A stretch of 64,000 bases of DNA from Oscillospiraceae bacterium (GTDB lineage Bacteria > Bacillota > Clostridia > Oscillospirales > CAG-272): contig SVSL01000005.1 of NCBI GenBank assembly GCA_015064315.1, positions 182-64,181 of the forward strand, read 5' to 3'. The position numbers were made by a program, and so were the translations under genes. Shown piece after piece: positions 4,126-55,021 of this stretch (within the stretch, counting starts at the first letter, position 1; every line of letters begins with the position of its first letter). The notes beneath the pieces are model-generated. The model was not told the origin of the DNA and did not search any database. It saw nothing but the letters and a program-made list of their open reading frames with translations.

Positions 4126-5139
4126 TCAAATCTCGTTCTTAAAAATCTCGATCCGCTTGCCGTTTGAGGCGTACATGGAAAGAATGAGGCGAACCACCTT
4201 GCCGCCCTCCTTTTCGTCCAGCGGGAAGGGGAGATCATTCTCAATGCAGTGATAGAAATGGGCGATCAGCGCCTTGTGACCGTTGCCCCAAACCGATTTT
4301 CCAACGCCGTCCTCACGGTTCTCCGCGCGAAGGATCTCACCGTTTACCGTGAGCAGATCGTTTTCGGCGTGTACTGTCTTTTTGCCGTTCAGGCGCAGAC
4401 GGATGTGCGCGGGGAAGCTCTTTCCCGCAGCGGTGGTGGCGTAAAAGTTGATCAGCGTTCCGTCGGGACACTCAAAGCGCGCCGCCGCCAGATCCTCCAC
4501 CTCAATGGAGCCCTTGTGATGGTCGTTTGCCGTGTGGGCAAGCACGTGGGTGGGCATACCGCAGATCCATTGCAAGAGGTCCAGGGTGTGAAGGGCTTGG
4601 TTGATCATCACGCCGCCGCCCTCCTGCTCCCAGGAGCCGCGCCAGCTGCCCGAGGCGTAATAGGCTTCATCGCGGATCCATACCACGTCGCCAAACGCCG
4701 CCAGAACCCCTTCGGAATCGGCAAGGCTTTTGGCGCCCAAAAAGTTGGGCTCGTAGCGGTTCTGATGGCAAACGCCCAGCTTGGCGGAGCTTTTCTTTGC
4801 GGCAGCTTCCACGCTTGCAAGCTGCTCCATGGAGATCGAGAGGGGCTTTTCGCAAAGCACGTGAATATTTCTTTCCAGCGCCTCCACGCACATTTCGGCG
4901 TGGAGGTAGTGGGGGGTACAAATGTGAACGATGTCGGGCTTTTCCGCGTCCAGCATCTCCTTGTAGTCGGTGTAAACGGGAATCTCCGTCAGCTCGTATT
5001 TTTCCATGATGCGAGCCGCTTGCGCGGGATCGATGTCACAGAGCGCGCAGATGGCTTGCCCCGCATTAAGGATGCCCTTGATATGATTGCCGCAAATGGC
5101 TCCGCAGCCAATGACGGCAACTCTGAAAGCCTTTTTCAT
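4126..5139 (-). CDS. Gfo/Idh/MocA-family oxidoreductase
   Basis: N-terminal Rossmann fold VAVIGCGAICGNH and an EKP motif (LCEKPL). Confidence 0.85.
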   Translation of the reverse strand: MKKAFRVAVIGCGAICGNHIKGILNAGQAICALCDIDPAQAARIMEKYELTEIPVYTDYKEMLDAEKPDIVHICTPHYLHAEMCVEALERNIHVLCEKPLSISMEQLASVEAAAKKSSAKLGVCHQNRYEPNFLGAKSLADSEGVLAAFGDVVWIRDEAYYASGSWRGSWEQEGGGVMINQALHTLDLLQWICGMPTHVLAHTANDHHKGSIEVEDLAAARFECPDGTLINFYATTAAGKSFPAHIRLRLNGKKTVHAENDLLTVNGEILRAENREDGVGKSVWGNGHKALIAHFYHCIENDLPFPLDEKEGGKVVRLILSMYASNGKRIEIFKNEI

Positions 5140-49482: not shown

Positions 49483-49517
49483 ACTTTTCATTTTGCATTT
49501 TGCACTTTGCATTTTCA
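49483..49517. repeat. Run of five heptads A(C/T)TTT(G/C)C
   Basis: ACTTTTC ATTTTGC ATTTTGC ACTTTGC ATTTTCA. The last unit overlaps the stop codon of the minus-strand LRR gene. Confidence 0.7.
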
Positions 49518-51170
49518 CTCCCACGCCGTGGGGATGCCGTCCACGTATCGCCAGTATTTGCCGGCGGTATTGGGTTGAACTTCGGAGTAGTAATAGATGG
49601 TGGCGGAGGTGAGGGATTCGTTGCCGGAATCAATGGCGATTGCACTCCATTCTTGCGCTGTGCCACCATAATAAACAATCTTGAGTTTATCGCAATATTG
49701 GAATGCATAGTAGCCAATGCTTGTGACTCTATCGGGAATGGTGATGTTGGTAAGATTACTGCAACCCGAGAATGCACACCAATTAATACTTGTGACATTA
49801 TTAGGAATAGATATTCTAGTAAGGCTAATGCAATCCGAGAATGCGTGCCAATCAATGATTGTTACGCTACTGGGGATGGATATGCTGGTAAGGCTGCGAC
49901 AATTTGAGAATGCGTTGCAGTCGATGTTTGTGATGTTATCAGGTAAGGAGATACTAGTTAGACTACTGCAATGCGAGAAAGCTCCCTTGCCAATGCTTTT
50001 CAAACTGTTGCCAAGAAAGATGTCCGTAATATTACTGCAACCCGAGAACGCATAATCGCCAATTCCGATTGCGTTTTGGCGCAAAACAGCATTTGTTACA
50101 TTTGTGTCACAGGCAATCACCCATTTGTCAACATAGGATATTCCGTTTTCCACTTGGATAAGGCTATTGCAACCTTTAAACGCATCCTCACCAATACTGA
50201 CCACGCTATCCGGAATAAATATGCTGGTGAGGCTATTGCAACCAGAGAAAGCCTTAGGGGCAATGCTTGTCACGTTATTGCCAAGAGTAACACTTGTAAG
50301 ATTGGTGCAACAGCAGAATGCCAGTTGCCCAATGTTAACTACACCATTTCCGATAATAACGGAGGTAAGGCTATTGCAAAAATAAAATGCGCCCTCGCCA
50401 ATGCTTATCACACTATTTGGAATGGATATACTAATAAGGTTTGCGCAATCGTAGAATGCCTGCCGTCCAATGCTTGTTACACCATTAGGAATGGATATGT
50501 CAGTAAGACTGTTACAACTATGGAACGCACTATCGCTAATGCTTGTAACATTATCGGGAATGGTGATGCTTGTAAGGCTACTGCAACTATGGAACGCACT
50601 ATCGCCAATGCTTGTAACATTATCGGGAATGGTGATGCTTGTAAGGCTACTGCAACTATGGAACGCACTATCGCCAATGCTTGTGACATTATTGGGGATA
50701 ATGATACTGGTGATTTTATTGCAATTATAAAATGCCCCCTTTGCAAGACCTGTTACAGTATCTCCATTAGGGGAAGTCGGGGGGATCAAAATCTTGGAGG
50801 ATGTACAGGTGCCGATTCCACTAATATAACAAGTGCCGTCCTGGTTAGAAGTGAATTCCAGCCCGGAACTAAACTCTAGTCCACATACAGTACAGACATT
50901 ATTCTCGCACTTGTGACCGTTGATACAAGGATCCGTGGGATTTATGGGATCCGTTGGCTGAGTGGGAATTTCATTCGTTCCAACGGTGCCCGTTGTCTTT
51001 TGCTCTGAATCTATAGGAACGGTTATGTTTTCTTCGAAAGTTTGTTTTGGACTGTTAGGACTATTATTCTGCTTGGCATTCTCACCAGAATCACAAGCTG
51101 TCAATAGCATTGCTACGCATAATAATAGGATACAAGTGCTGATCCAACATTGTTTTTTGAACTTCTTCAT
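49515..51170 (-). CDS. BspA-type leucine-rich-repeat surface lipoprotein
   Basis: Lipobox LLTAC and many 23-aa repeats (IPDNVTSIGDSAFHSCSSLTSIT). AAGGAGG ribosome site. Confidence 0.85.
   Translation of the reverse strand: MKKFKKQCWISTCILLLCVAMLLTACDSGENAKQNNSPNSPKQTFEENITVPIDSEQKTTGTVGTNEIPTQPTDPINPTDPCINGHKCENNVCTVCGLEFSSGLEFTSNQDGTCYISGIGTCTSSKILIPPTSPNGDTVTGLAKGAFYNCNKITSIIIPNNVTSIGDSAFHSCSSLTSITIPDNVTSIGDSAFHSCSSLTSITIPDNVTSISDSAFHSCNSLTDISIPNGVTSIGRQAFYDCANLISISIPNSVISIGEGAFYFCNSLTSVIIGNGVVNIGQLAFCCCTNLTSVTLGNNVTSIAPKAFSGCNSLTSIFIPDSVVSIGEDAFKGCNSLIQVENGISYVDKWVIACDTNVTNAVLRQNAIGIGDYAFSGCSNITDIFLGNSLKSIGKGAFSHCSSLTSISLPDNITNIDCNAFSNCRSLTSISIPSSVTIIDWHAFSDCISLTRISIPNNVTSINWCAFSGCSNLTNITIPDRVTSIGYYAFQYCDKLKIVYYGGTAQEWSAIAIDSGNESLTSATIYYYSEVQPNTAGKYWRYVDGIPTAWE
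50521..50727 (-). repeat. Three near-identical 69-bp tandem repeats inside the LRR gene
   Basis: ATGGAACGCACTATCGC recurs at 50521, 50590 and 50659 (69-nt period, equal to one 23-aa LRR). Confidence 0.88.
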
Positions 51171-51525: not shown

Positions 51526-52953
51526 GTGATCAACAAAAACAATATTCTGCCGCGTGAAGAGGTCGAGGCGCAAAAGGCATATATTGCGCGGATGCGCGCC
51601 GAGAACGATGCCTATCTTGCGGAGCACGGCGTTCGTCGCAAGGCATTTGTGCTGACCTTTGGCTGTCAGCAAAACGAAGCCGACAGCGAAAAGCTTTCGG
51701 GACTCTCGGAGGCGATGGGCTACGAGATCGTGGGCGCTCCCGAGGATGCCGACCTCATCGTGGTCAACACCTGCGCCATCCGCGAGCACGCCGAGCAAAA
51801 GGCTCTTTCCATTGTGGGGCAGTACAAGCACCTCAAGGCGAAGAACCCCGATCTCATCATCGCCGTTTGCGGCTGTATGGTGACGCAGGAGCACCGCAAG
51901 AATGATATCAAATTCCGCTACCCTTATGTGGATTTCGTCTTTGGAACCTCCTCCATCCACCGCTTCCCCCAGCTTCTTTGGGACAAGCGGGAAAAAGGAA
52001 AGCGGCTCTACTGTCCCGAGGAGAAGGAATATCTGGTTGCCGAGGGGCTTCCCATTCGTCGCGAGAGCGACTACCGCGCCTGGGTCTCGGTGATGTACGG
52101 GTGCAACAATTTTTGCTCCTACTGCATCGTTCCCTACGTCCGTGGACGCGAGAGAAGCCGCGAGATGGCTCCCATTGTGGCGGAGGTCAAGGAGCTGGTT
52201 GCGCGCGGCTACAAGGATATTACGCTTCTTGGACAAAACGTCAACTCCTACGGCAAGGACAGCGGATACCCCTATGATTTCGCGGATCTTCTCTCGGAGC
52301 TGGACAAGATTGAGGGCGACTATCAGCTGCGCTTTATGACCAGCCACCCAAAGGATGCCGATCGAAAGCTCATCGACGTCATGGCAGATTCCAAGCATAT
52401 CGCGCGGCATTTTCATCTGCCCATGCAATCGGGAAGTGATACGATTCTCAAAGCCATGAACCGCCACTACGATACCGAACGCTATCTCGGCATCGTGGAC
52501 TATATGCGAAAGAAGATGCCCGACGTGACCATCACATCGGATATCATCGTGGGCTTTCCGGGAGAGACCGAGGAGGATTTTGAGGGAACGCTGGCAATGC
52601 TTCGCAGAGTGGAGTTTGATATGCTCTATTCCTTCATCTACTCGGCGCGAAAGGGAACACCCGCCGCCGAGATGGAGCAGGTTCCCAGAGAGATTCAAAA
52701 CGCTCGCTTTGACCGCCTTCTGGCACTTCAGGGCGAGATTGCCAAGGCGAAGAATCAGCCTCTTGTGGGGCAAAAGCTTCGCGTGCTTTGCGACGGTGTG
52801 AGCAAGAACAATCCAAACCTCTATTCGGGGCGCACCGAGGGGAACAAGATCGTCTTCTTTGAGGGCGTGCCCGAGGATCGCGGACAGTTTGTTGATTTTG
52901 TTGCCGACCGTGCCGATGCTTTTGCGCTGTACGGGAAGAAGATTGCAAAGTAA
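51526..52953 (+). CDS. miaB: tRNA-2-methylthio-N6-dimethylallyladenosine synthase
   Basis: FVLTFGCQQNEADSE, radical-SAM CNNFCSYCIVP, TRAM C-terminus. The GTG start is as in the ORF track. Confidence 0.9.
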   Translation: MINKNNILPREEVEAQKAYIARMRAENDAYLAEHGVRRKAFVLTFGCQQNEADSEKLSGLSEAMGYEIVGAPEDADLIVVNTCAIREHAEQKALSIVGQYKHLKAKNPDLIIAVCGCMVTQEHRKNDIKFRYPYVDFVFGTSSIHRFPQLLWDKREKGKRLYCPEEKEYLVAEGLPIRRESDYRAWVSVMYGCNNFCSYCIVPYVRGRERSREMAPIVAEVKELVARGYKDITLLGQNVNSYGKDSGYPYDFADLLSELDKIEGDYQLRFMTSHPKDADRKLIDVMADSKHIARHFHLPMQSGSDTILKAMNRHYDTERYLGIVDYMRKKMPDVTITSDIIVGFPGETEEDFEGTLAMLRRVEFDMLYSFIYSARKGTPAAEMEQVPREIQNARFDRLLALQGEIAKAKNQPLVGQKLRVLCDGVSKNNPNLYSGRTEGNKIVFFEGVPEDRGQFVDFVADRADAFALYGKKIAK

Positions 52954-52969
52954 GTAAGGAGAGATTGAA

Positions 52970-53359
52970 TTGTTACGTGCCGAAATTGTTAAAGAAATGT
53001 CCATGCCTTATGAGACATTGGTAGAATACTTGCTTGTGAAATATGGTGGGGCTATAGGAGATTATTTTTCTACACCAGAATGTAAAACAAAAAACAAAAA
53101 AGCAGTACGAACAGCGGAGGGACTGTATTGCCACCACATAGACGAAGACAAAGGAGGAAATTTGTCTAATCCTTGTTCAGCAAGACGGCAGCCTTTTGAA
53201 TGGCAAAAAAAAGAAAGATTGGTGTATTGCAATTTATTGGAGCATTTGATACTGCATATAAAGATTGCTATTCTAAGACAAAAAACAAAATTCAAAAAAC
53301 CTCTGACCTCAAAGATTTTTTTACTACAGGCGGGGTGTTTATGGTATGCCAAGAAATAA
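52970..53359 (+). CDS. Small hypothetical protein with an HNH-like (His-His...Asn...His) signature, in the AT-rich islet
   Basis: The TTG start lies 8 nt after AAGGAG (52956..52961). The motif is YCHHIDEDKGGNLSN...LVYCNLLEHLILH with four Cys. The 3' end is uncertain because of the overlap with the next ORF. Confidence 0.5.
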   Translation: MLRAEIVKEMSMPYETLVEYLLVKYGGAIGDYFSTPECKTKNKKAVRTAEGLYCHHIDEDKGGNLSNPCSARRQPFEWQKKERLVYCNLLEHLILHIKIAILRQKTKFKKPLTSKIFLLQAGCLWYAKK

Positions 53360-54318
53360 ATGATATGTTCAGAATGAATGGAACTACTGTATCCTATAAA
53401 CAATGTTGCTATAAACAGTTTGAGGACAATTATGAAGAATATATATGTATTTTGAAAACCGTTTTGTGTTACCTCGAGCTCAATTATGAAGGGGATAAAA
53501 ATACAGAGACGCTCTTTAAAAAGGGGAGAGTGATCGATCATTCGGGCATTCAAGGAGTGGTAGAAGATTATCATGAGTTAGGGGGATGGATTGTTGTAAA
53601 GAAAACTAACGGAGAGACGGAAAAAATTCCGAAATATGTGCTTGAGGGAGTGTTTGGATCATTGTTTTCTTATAGTGATCGAATGAATGCCGTTAGAAGA
53701 GATTTGTCGCTTGGCTACAGAGACTTTTATAGGACAATATTTGAAGAGTTGTCTGTGAAAGATTGTTCAACGATGAAAAAGTGGTGTGACTTATTATCGG
53801 TTGACTATACGGGTTATGGACATGTTCAGTTTTCCAAGATTCATTTGGACAAAAATATATATGGCTCTGAGAATGCAGATGAATATGTATCTAAAGCGTA
53901 CCCGGCTTTGCATGCTTCTACCTTCAATACAGATCAAAAAGAGATTGTTTTTTGGAGGGGAGATTTCCCTGAAGATATACTAAAAAGTGATTGCTTTTAC
54001 ATTGTTAGGATTGAAACTTCTTTCAAAATAAAGGAAGGTGAAATTCCGTTTGTAAAATATAAAGAGCGGGATTTTTTAAGAAGACCGCTTCTTGGACTAA
54101 CAAATACGTATAATCTGCTGCAACATGAAATAATTTTACACACATCTGACTTGTATTCTGAAAAAGACAATAAATACTATAGTCAATACAAAAACTTGGA
54201 GGGTAAGATTTGTGATGCAACAGTCAAGCTTACATTGACTAAAGGGGATTTTGAATTGTTCAAGGAAAGACATTATATTAGAACGCTAAAAATTTTAGAT
54301 GGATGCTATTTTCGATAA
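53341..54318 (+). CDS. Hypothetical protein (325 aa from the ATG at 53341; the ORF is open from 53200), in the AT-rich islet
   Basis: This is a long AT-rich ORF in a window where random AT-rich ORFs of this size are unlikely. GGCGGGG lies upstream of the ATG at 53341. I recognise no domain. Confidence 0.55.
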   Translation: MVCQEINDMFRMNGTTVSYKQCCYKQFEDNYEEYICILKTVLCYLELNYEGDKNTETLFKKGRVIDHSGIQGVVEDYHELGGWIVVKKTNGETEKIPKYVLEGVFGSLFSYSDRMNAVRRDLSLGYRDFYRTIFEELSVKDCSTMKKWCDLLSVDYTGYGHVQFSKIHLDKNIYGSENADEYVSKAYPALHASTFNTDQKEIVFWRGDFPEDILKSDCFYIVRIETSFKIKEGEIPFVKYKERDFLRRPLLGLTNTYNLLQHEIILHTSDLYSEKDNKYYSQYKNLEGKICDATVKLTLTKGDFELFKERHYIRTLKILDGCYFR

Positions 54319-54350
54319 AATATTGATTTTAAAAAGGAGTTTTATTTGCC

Positions 54351-54737
54351 ATGGAAATTTTTGAACTTGCCGCAGAGCTCGGCAAAAAGCTGAAGGATGA
54401 CGCACGCCTGATCGCTTTGGAGGATGCCAAGAAGGCATACGAGGGAAGCGCAGAGCTGAAGAAGTATATGATCGAATACGAGGTTCAACAAAAGGCAATG
54501 CAGGCAGAGGTCGCAAGAGCTGACAGAGATATGCAGATGGTCGAGGTGATTCAGAAGCGTATTGACGAGCTTTACAGACTTATCGCGCAGCACCCCGTAT
54601 TCGTGGAGCTGGATCGCGCGCAGGCAGAGGTCAACGAGCTGATGAACGCGGTCAACAACACCATCATGACCCAGATCACCGGTCAGGAGCCCTCGAGCTG
54701 CACCCACAACTGCGCTACCTGTGGCGGATGCCACTGA
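54351..54737 (+). CDS. YlbF/YmcA (RicF/RicA) family regulatory protein with a Cys-rich C-terminal tail
   Basis: Helical YmcA-like sequence (LGKKLKDDARLIALEDAKKAYE...IDELYRLIAQHPVFVELDRAQ). It occupies the position between miaB and mutS, as ymcA does in B. subtilis. Confidence 0.75.
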   Translation: MEIFELAAELGKKLKDDARLIALEDAKKAYEGSAELKKYMIEYEVQQKAMQAEVARADRDMQMVEVIQKRIDELYRLIAQHPVFVELDRAQAEVNELMNAVNNTIMTQITGQEPSSCTHNCATCGGCH

Positions 54738-54739
54738 GC

Positions 54740-54854
54740 AAATTCTGCGGTGCAGAATTTGCAGTGAAATACGGCTTCGCCGTGTGAAATTCGCCTATGG
54801 CGAGTGAAATCGATTGCAAGCAATCGGTGAAATACGCCTGCGGCGTGTGAAAAA
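54740..54854 (+). repeat. GTGAAAT-anchored hairpin array (5 units) preceded by a 10-bp hairpin
   Basis: CAAATTCTGC-ggt-GCAGAATTTG, then GTGAAAT at 54765, 54785, 54805 and 54828 and GTGAAAA at 54848. The stems are ACGGC/GCCGT, TCGCC/GGCGA, CGATTGC/GCAATCG and ACGCC/GGCGT. Confidence 0.85.
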
Positions 54855-54967
54855 ATCTTTGGAGACGAACAGAAAAAAGCGTTCTCCGCTTTCAATTTCA
54901 AAGCTTTTCAATACAAGCTTTTAACTGCAAATAAAATTGGTTTTGCGCAAGCAAAACCTACATCAAC

Positions 54968-55002
54968 TATTCACTTTTCACTATTCACTATTCACTATTC
55001 AC
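54968..55002 (+). repeat. Five tandem heptads T(A/T)TTCAC abutting the mutS ribosome-binding site
   Basis: TATTCAC TTTTCAC TATTCAC TATTCAC TATTCAC, then TTG-AAAGGAG (55005..55011) and the ATG at 55022. Confidence 0.85.
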
Positions 55003-55021
55003 TTGAAAGGAGCCTCCCGCC

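Follow-up and report, generated by a model that had tools for sequence, protein, structure and literature searches.

The stretch of DNA analysed here, hereafter the window, comprises 64,000 nt of an Oscillospiraceae bacterium contig (SVSL01000005.1). In it, an AT-rich islet lies in the miaB-ymcA-mutS operon, placed exactly between the last sense codon of miaB and the start of ymcA, and it carries what we read as one inserted gene, here called X, broken by a frameshift. The islet has 34.6% GC and ~32% GC at third codon positions (GC3), against 55.1%, 53.7% and 54.9% GC in miaB, ymcA and mutS, whose GC3 is 69-70%. When the window was scanned in stretches of 1397 nt (mean GC 0.519, standard deviation 0.039), the lowest one was the islet, ~4.5 standard deviations below the mean (minimum 0.344 at 52951), and a GC of 0.35 or less was reached at only 0.12% of the positions. 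The drop coincides with the miaB stop and the recovery with the ymcA start, as an earlier note made by reading the letters of this DNA had described, and its hand counts of G+C were exact (16/60, 24/60 and 30/60 for the lines starting at 53401, 53581 and 52801). The same note had read an AAGGAG 8 nt before a TTG at 52970; this start is backed by the alignment of homologues, and two other copies found at the miaB junction also open with TTG-TTA. No terminator-like site was found on the plus strand between miaB and ymcA, and since the islet has its own ribosome-binding sites but no terminator, it would be read through from the operon, which makes the cotranscription proposed in the earlier note plausible. 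No Rfam RNA was found inside the islet, and the search for terminal direct or inverted repeats and target-site duplications around it gave only short matches at chance level.

Two open reading frames (ORFs) are visible in the islet, ORF-A (52970-53359) and ORF-B (53200-54318), overlapping by 160 nt in different frames. A search with both joined into one protein retrieved 260 proteins, nearly all of them single chains of 440 to 450 aa with 100% query coverage. At 90% identity, there are at least 260 full-length clusters of X, and the source names listed for them are all "hypothetical protein". As read from the sequence, the islet is a single horizontally acquired gene, now a pseudogene, split by a 1-nt deletion at 53303/53304 (Table 1): two bases remain of the codon between the two frames, therefore one base was deleted. 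The public gene call at this locus, P0001 (325 aa), starts at an internal ATG and covers the rest of the 3' segment. Every invariant residue of the family is retained in the window copy, its frameshift aside, which points to a recent inactivation.

The earlier note had interpreted the two ORFs as a cassette of a small HNH nuclease and an unrecognised partner, in the layout of a toxin-antitoxin or two-component defence pair. The window does show two overlapping ORFs, and stand-alone proteins of ~197 aa, equivalent to the N-terminal domain of X, occur elsewhere. However, ORF-A and ORF-B are the halves of one gene, with every close homologue being one uninterrupted protein across both. ORF-A ends within a domain, after 111 of its ~175 residues plus 18 out-of-frame ones, the 160-nt overlap lies in different frames, and such a pair is conserved at no other locus. 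In 31 clusters of X, defined at 90% identity or more and drawn from genomes and metagenomes, no conserved partner gene was found. We regard the two-gene cassette as highly improbable, and the alignment of homologues already refutes it.

It is also improbable, though not to the same degree, that the frame is truly intact or rescued, either because of an assembly error or by ribosomal or transcriptional slippage at the A6 run at 53294-53299. The run is immediately upstream of the lesion, and slippage on it would yield ...FKKTSDLKDFF..., a product of the correct length. On the other hand, five other contigs (L001-L005, from five metagenome samples and two archives) carry the frameshifted sequence with 100% identity, so it is a real allele and not a one-off assembly error; these contigs are 99.96-100% identical over the locus and count as one clone or species. 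The conserved proline is read in frame A after the A6 run, therefore the lesion lies outside the homopolymer, at CCT/CT. A shift at this position is required by no other family member, and C-AAA-AAA-C differs from the canonical X-XXY-YYZ slippery site. Programmed frameshifting and assembly error were both rejected on these grounds. The annotation of the window should accordingly be corrected to one pseudogene instead of a two-gene module, with the miaB-ymcA-mutS operon bearing a dead passenger.

Table 1. Features of the islet between miaB and ymcA (positions in the window).
Feature	Position	Strand	Details and evidence
miaB, upstream flank	51526..52953	+	UPF0004, Radical_SAM and TRAM domains
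Inserted AT-rich segment	52954..54350	+	Replaces native miaB stop codon and 27-44-nt miaB-ymcA spacer; GC and empty junctions in L098, L100, L109
AAGGAG, ribosome-binding site of inserted gene	52956..52961	+	Sequence; TTG start 8 nt downstream
Pseudogene X, ~449 aa once frameshift is repaired	52970..54318	+	TTG start, TAA stop; 260 homologues
5' segment in native frame, codons 1-111, ends ...FKKP	52970..53302	+	Alignment A1 with homologues
NCBIfam NF053682 (SAV1803-related) match	52985..53281	+	E = 3.9e-38; by homology the domain runs past the frameshift to ~53494
Candidate metal/catalytic motif C54-H55-H56 ... N88 ... E91-H92 ... H96	53129..53257	+	Columns invariant or nearly so in 106 and 67 sequences
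Frameshift site	53303..53304	+	Codon between P111 and D one base short; -1 shift needed
3' segment in second frame, D..LKDFFTTGG... to ...ILDGCYFR, then stop	53305..54318	+	Frame analysis and alignment
Premature TAA closing the out-of-frame tail of ORF-A	53357..53359	+	
Polymerase-derived region	53830..54315	+	Motif A deleted; BLASTP of ORF-B 211-372 vs polymerase P0396 231-405, E = 6e-22
AAGGAG at 3' end of insert, now ymcA ribosome-binding site	54334..54339	+	11 nt before ATG 54351
ymcA/ylbF-family gene, downstream flank	54351..54737	+	Pfam Com_YlbF, E = 8.6e-15

The junction was compared among relatives found through a YmcA search, a comparison that the earlier note had proposed. In the three closest relatives, L109, L098 and L100, with YmcA 93%, 90% and 88% identical to that of the window, the miaB-ymcA junction is empty (27-44 nt), while it is occupied in the window, L006 and L108. 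These empty-site genomes carry GAAAGGAAATAAAACC at the position of the ymcA ribosome-binding site, in place of the AAGGAG of the insert, and their MiaB ends in ...YGKKI, against ...YGKKIAK in the window. An intact copy of X at the same junction, P0002, is found in a more distant metagenome-assembled genome (MAG), GCA_045534435.1 "Eubacteriales bacterium" (L006/L018), where the gene has 30% GC within surroundings of 55-58%. Its MiaB, YmcA and MutS are 72, 74 and 83% identical to those of the window and its X copy 58%, whereas MiaB and MutS of the empty-site relatives reach 89-93% and 88-93%. A third copy, P0003 (L108), lies between the 3' end of miaB and the start of ymcA. The three junction copies form one clade, with 58-73% mutual identity and 50% or less to all others. 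The nearest relatives having an empty junction, the AT-rich segment is to be taken as foreign, and the claim of the earlier note that it was inserted in a conserved operon stands.

Two histories would account for this junction: at least two separate insertions at the site, or a single old insertion removed precisely on two or three occasions. That the GC3 of the copies has not ameliorated (25-32% vs ~70%) favours, as we infer, a recent and repeated gain. At the miaB and ymcA edges, the short flanks available showed no co-conversion tract and no donor-like sequence, and the flanks of the window are like those of its empty-site relatives. In L006 (GCA_045534435.1), we also observed that an in-frame TGA at 5106-5108 replaces the first Cys codon of the radical-SAM CxxxCxxC motif of miaB (stop-NNFCSYC after the G, vs GCNNFCSYC in the window), and the gene caller splits this miaB into two ORFs; it is either a real nonsense mutation or a MAG error.

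The X protein has three parts: an N-terminal domain (residues ~1-175), a central beta/alpha region and a C-terminal region of ~165 aa. The AlphaFold model of the intact homologue P0002, built from 106 sequences, has a mean predicted local distance difference test (pLDDT) of 94.5 and a predicted template modelling score (pTM) of 0.91. The N-terminal domain belongs to a family that is catalogued by NCBI without a function, NF053682. ORF-A scores 130.2 bits (cutoff 40) over profile positions 2-111 of 132, being cut by the frameshift, and intact homologues score 121-141 bits over positions 2-131. SAV1803, from which the family takes its name, is a hypothetical gene marking the 5' edge of the vSa-beta island of Staphylococcus aureus, next to hsdS/hsdM (PMC6805111).

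The domain was found in at least 1,406 protein clusters, the majority of them stand-alone proteins of ~197 aa, whose genes come right behind that of a Mob_Pre relaxase on small integrative mobilisable elements. Firmicutes plasmids, two Staphylococcus phages and large viral contigs carry the domain as well. In L102-L107 (5001-5594), stand-alone 197-aa genes always follow the Mob_Pre relaxase gene directly, and so does a full-length X lineage in L019, L134-L136 and L139; the elements with either type are small and carry an integrase or serine recombinase, and P0249 alone was seen on 144 contigs. Clustering of the upstream neighbours of N-domain proteins from 80 genomes gave few recurrent ones and revealed large proteins (~660-1,570 aa), present in many genomes, with the domain at the C-terminus; those examined carry ResIII and Eco57I-methylase or SNF2 helicase domains. 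As a side observation, the SAV1803-like domain forms the C-terminal end both of Type ISP-like proteins (ResIII+Eco57I-methylase) and of SNF2 helicases, with fusions in L054 (1837-6576), L065, L063, L071 and L079 (~1,545-1,580 aa) and in L075 (3172-6570) and eight others (~1,130-1,143 aa). In L075, the gene after the large fusion encodes an HNH_4 protein.

Within the N-terminal domain, C54, H55, H56, E59, C87, E91, H92 and H96 are invariant in 106 sequences, and N88 is conserved in at least 90%. The residues of the candidate motif fall on a predicted strand (53-56), a second strand (84-87) and a helix (89-103), making up a beta-beta-alpha element in which the spacing of the strands, 27 aa, is unusually long. 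By eye, we take the HH..N..HxxxH order to resemble the arrangement of colicin-type His-Me nucleases. Pfam, PADLOC and PHROGs searches with the ORFs and intact homologues gave nothing meaningful, except for one weak match to a PHROG without an assigned function (E = 6e-4).

The second ORF had been called unrecognisable in the earlier note, but part of it contains a clearly recognisable fragment of a phage protein-primed DNA polymerase, retrieved by tblastn, BLASTP and phmmer. In GenBank phages, tblastn with P0002 found the DNA polymerase genes of podophages of ~16-17 kb (E down to 3e-18), namely Clostridium phages CS229P1-3 (annotated "DNA polymerase") and human-faecal "Bacteriophage sp." contigs; BLASTP of P0002 against residues 272-400 of the CS229P2 polymerase gave E = 2e-14. 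In CS229P2, the gene just before that of the polymerase (L110, 1519-2187) codes for a candidate terminal protein. An exhaustive phmmer search with P0001 against 1.84 billion representative proteins matched 152 of them, and ~60 are proteins of 600-690 aa aligned at residues ~280-410, with a best E of 5e-14 against bona fide polymerases; PF03175 was present in the three polymerase-type matches tested. Foldseek with the full P0002 model retrieved only phi29 DNA polymerase, including the polymerase-terminal protein complex 2EX3, with probability 1.0 over 126 columns. The C-terminal ~165 aa of X are clearly derived, by these comparisons, from a phi29-type phage DNA polymerase.

On the phage polymerases, this region maps between motif A (DVNSLYPS) and motif B (KLFLNNLYGK), which is the position of TPR1. 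This insertion is specific to protein-primed polymerases, binds both the primer DNA and the intermediate domain of the terminal protein, and in phi29 sets the specificity between polymerase and terminal protein (PMC6921018). The C-terminal region of X corresponds to the helix before motif A plus the whole TPR1 subdomain. In the alignment with P0396, the segment from the YxGG motif to motif A (YKGAWCY...DVNSLYPS) is deleted, and X ends before motif B. Likeness is highest in the near-identical DKNIYGSENADEY, with 13 of its 14 residues shared by ORF-B of the window and P0396, and in the closing ILDGC(Y/W)F strand. No PF03175 match was obtained for X, either with the ORFs or with the 67 members of alignment A4. 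The NADEYISKAYP segment of X was considered as a polymerase motif A and rejected, since the P0396 alignment places it in the helix before the YxGG motif, motif A being deleted.

Homology of this region to phage polymerases could suggest that the islet is the remnant of a degraded phi29-like prophage or polymerase gene, but we find this extremely unlikely. The homology is limited to a sharply bounded fragment of ~165 aa that is always joined to a non-polymerase N-terminus; the fragment has many invariant residues across more than 100 clusters, it was independently joined to a second N-domain, and other phage genes are absent from the locus.

That second N-domain occurs in a group of sibling proteins of 431-500 aa (P0383, P0385, P0388, P0400 and P0393), in which the C-domain of X stands behind a different N-terminus. 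In P0393, the latter matches the PADLOC candidate PDC-S61 (E = 3e-107) and the PD-(D/E)xK domain associated with defence-associated reverse transcriptases (DRT; RTasPDDEXK, E = 4e-12). PDC-S61 was reported within a defence island of Streptococcus thermophilus (PMC11514479). The P0393 gene (L132, 1019-2314) has 35% GC vs 54% in the upstream and 44% in the downstream gene, and its insertion point lies 19 nt past a rumA-type methyltransferase gene whose orthologues precede X in L022 and L024. Two unrelated nuclease-type heads being borne on one tail argues that the head is the effector and that the fragment has a function of its own, as a targeting or sensing module.

The copies of X are AT-rich whatever the host: in the 31 clusters, its GC content is 29-38% with flanks of 31-65%, and it is below the flank in 27 of 28. 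Between L021 and L025, nucleotide identity (93%) is confined to X with ~190 nt before it and ~70 nt after it, and between L019 and L008 (87%) to X with 60-80 nt on each side; in both pairs the surroundings are unrelated. Judging from these pairs, the transferred unit is an AT-rich single ORF of ~1.5 kb with very little flank. A co-oriented upstream ORF ends 70 nt or less before X in 11 of the 23 clusters with a called upstream ORF (12 if the mis-called miaB of L006 is included).

Besides the miaB-ymcA junction, where X is both present and absent at one site and recurs at that site in divergent hosts, the 3' end of rumA is also recurrently occupied. X follows rumA-type genes (TRAM plus U5-methyltransferase) in L022 and L024, and the PD-(D/E)xK sibling follows one in L132, with gaps of 19-58 nt; the three genes are orthologous and come from three different bacteria. 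This kind of site is therefore shared by two families with different nuclease heads. In L154, X lies 56 nt after a rumA paralogue. Other contexts of X include elements with a Mob_Pre relaxase, a resolvase or an integrase, a transposase, a NERD-domain gene and a peptidase M28, and further neighbours resemble lysS and guaA by their N-terminal sequence. No conserved end motifs were found across 14 insertion sites. IMG/VR viral contigs and GenBank phages yielded the N-domain or the polymerase itself, but never a full-length X.

Some further observations concern individual lineages. The four separate metagenome contigs of one of them, L172-L175, have the same frameshift at residue ~318, shortly ahead of the TPR1-like domain, and the lineage in L166 has a frameshift at residue ~210. 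With the window copy and these two lineages broken at different positions, X seems to be often pseudogenised. In the P0112 lineage (L014, L156, L157 and L159), X always lies 39-67 nt after the gene of a 264-aa protein that is conserved (80-83% identity between loci) and matches no Pfam family; this protein could be a lineage-specific partner or simply a conserved host neighbour.

We tentatively suggest, at somewhat less than even chances, that the window copy is a decayed, homing-endonuclease-like selfish nuclease gene. We infer this function because X is found at the same site in divergent hosts and is absent from the nearest relatives, the transferred unit is minimal, its GC content is uniformly low and its decay is repeated. 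In such a process, the N-domain would cut DNA, and the polymerase-derived domain would supply binding to DNA or to DNA ends. The break, beside the end of a conserved gene, would be repaired with a copy carrying X, so that in other lineages the ~1.5-kb ORF would come to occupy the same site by repair-copying. Once fixed, it would decay, and the window copy would be at this stage. A nuclease-like character is suggested by the beta-beta-alpha motif, by weak fold matches to Mob and HNH proteins in BFVD, by the methylase and helicase fusions and by the PD-(D/E)xK sibling; the Mob-like matches weakly echo the homing-like reading itself.

Several points weigh against it. The earlier note had called ORF-A HNH-like, and we consider this assignment plausible but unproven. 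The predicted beta-beta-alpha element agrees with it, and 9 of the top 18 BFVD Foldseek matches of the N-domain are annotated as HNH or Mob homing endonucleases (E 0.4-2.5), but all BFVD matches have E above 0.01 and are individually insignificant. Pfam gave no HNH-family match for ORF-A, nor for any of the 67 sequences in alignment A4 with E allowed up to 10, PDB sequence and profile searches with full-length and N-domain profiles gave no match at all, and the isolated N-domain model (pLDDT 92.6) had no Foldseek match in PDB (best E = 3). The nuclease activity of X is thus a prediction. Free-standing homing endonuclease genes are documented mainly in phages and not in bacterial operons. X also occupies numerous unrelated sites and is carried by mobile elements, behind Mob_Pre relaxase or resolvase genes, the TPR1 fragment is not an obvious sequence-specific reader of DNA, and neither flanking repeats nor co-conversion tracts were seen at the islet. 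The pattern at the miaB junction could come from one old insertion followed by two or three precise losses, and the associations with defence-type domains suit an immune function at least equally.

Such a function is the main alternative, which we hold to be possible but on the unlikely side. X would be a single-gene anti-phage or anti-plasmid defence nuclease, inactive in the window, whose TPR1 domain would mimic the polymerase surface that binds the terminal protein. By sensing or targeting podophages with terminal-protein-primed replication, or protein-capped ends, this domain would activate or position the N-terminal nuclease. The proposal best accounts for the logic of the domains, with a head fused to restriction and helicase proteins, a sibling related to PDC-S61, and a tail from phages of the same habitat. 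The role of TPR1 in phi29 fits it (PMC6921018). Podophages of gut Clostridia, ~16-17 kb long, and phage contigs from human faeces encode the closest polymerases (31-44% identity over 125-190 aa), and this is the habitat of the X hosts as well. The unrelated nuclease that shares the C-domain matches PDC-S61 and the DRT-associated PD-(D/E)xK domain, the SAV1803 domain is C-terminal in Type ISP-like restriction-modification enzymes and SNF2 helicases and flanks the hsdS/hsdM island vSa-beta (PMC6805111), and a NERD-domain gene precedes one X copy. Defence cargo is typically carried on small mobilisable elements, low in GC, patchily distributed and frequently inactivated, as is seen for X.

On the other side, PADLOC-DB v2.0.0, searched for the defence module suspected in the earlier note, returned nothing for ORF-A, ORF-B, P0002, P0056 or the stand-alone P0249, and matched only the sibling N-domain (PDC-S61). 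The neighbours of the 31 X clusters are mostly housekeeping genes and not defence islands, and defence hotspots usually have varied cargo, whereas here one family recurs at the same site, a fidelity that defence leaves unexplained. Full-length X was found on none of the viral contigs searched, and binding of the terminal protein is purely conjectural. The homing-like and defence readings are compatible and do not exclude each other, and the window copy is inactive either way.

A more specific proposal, which we consider rather unlikely, is that the X family and the PD-(D/E)xK sibling are a new kind of single-protein immunity, in which a nuclease would use a stolen phage TPR1 as a decoy against protein-primed replication. 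Through this decoy it would detect phi29-like podophages by their terminal protein or protein-capped genome ends, and destroy them. If X is a defence gene, its sensor would be built from the phage's own replication machinery. In literature searches, we found no published description of a nuclease-type head fused to a TPR1 fragment, with either head. The family type, a putative nuclease head plus a targeting tail, is represented by intact homologues such as P0002 and P0056.

Other features were seen near the islet. The ymcA-mutS spacer contains, at 54762-54838 on the plus strand, a series of short hairpins with GTGAAAT after each, which matches the Gut-1 RNA of Rfam (RF01706) with 59.4 bits, above the gathering threshold of 50 (E = 1.8e-10). 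TRF gave for the same spacer a period of 20 nt with 4.3 copies (54764-54852), and a heptamer tandem repeat (ACTATTC, 5.4 copies, 93% matches) lies just upstream of mutS at 54966-55003. On the minus strand, immediately upstream of miaB, a 551-aa lipoprotein-like ORF (49515-51170) has many leucine-rich, BspA-like repeats of ~23 aa (IP..VTSIG..AF..C.SLTSI); with ~43% GC, it is a second low-GC patch.

Compared with protein-primed family-B polymerases (phi29, PDB 1XHX/2EX3, PF03175), the last ~165 aa of X align to residues ~231-405 of the gut podophage enzymes with 31-44% identity. In contrast, X has no exonuclease domain, fingers, motifs A, B and C, TPR2 or thumb, and since the catalytic motifs, the exonuclease domain and the thumb are lacking, it cannot polymerise. 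With the NF053682/SAV1803 family, X shares the N-terminal ~130-175 aa, which match the model and have the common Y/K/YG ... CHH.E ... YCN.LEHL.LH.K signature. The members of that family, however, are mostly stand-alone proteins of ~197 aa on small mobilisable elements, or C-terminal parts of large helicase or methylase proteins, whereas X has the added central region and the polymerase-derived C-domain. The PD-(D/E)xK sibling resembles X in this C-domain, in its similar size, in being an AT-rich single ORF and in its site after a rumA-type gene, and differs in its unrelated N-domain; PADLOC holds as a candidate that N-domain only and not the fusion.

For the homing-like reading, the closest known systems are the free-standing HNH homing genes of phages (T4 MobA-E and Seg; "intronless homing"). 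X differs from them in residing in bacterial housekeeping operons and mobilisable elements and not in phage genomes, in having no HNH match at the profile level, and in a tail that is a polymerase fragment instead of a NUMOD or helix-turn-helix type reader; its cleavage and homing are predictions. If it is an element of this type, free-standing endonuclease-like genes would be colonising bacterial housekeeping operons at fixed sites. Like the phage genes, X is a small AT-rich ORF between conserved co-oriented genes, with variable presence among close relatives, the same site in divergent lineages and decay of copies, and it has the HH..N..H motif and weak Foldseek matches to MobC- and MobE-like proteins.

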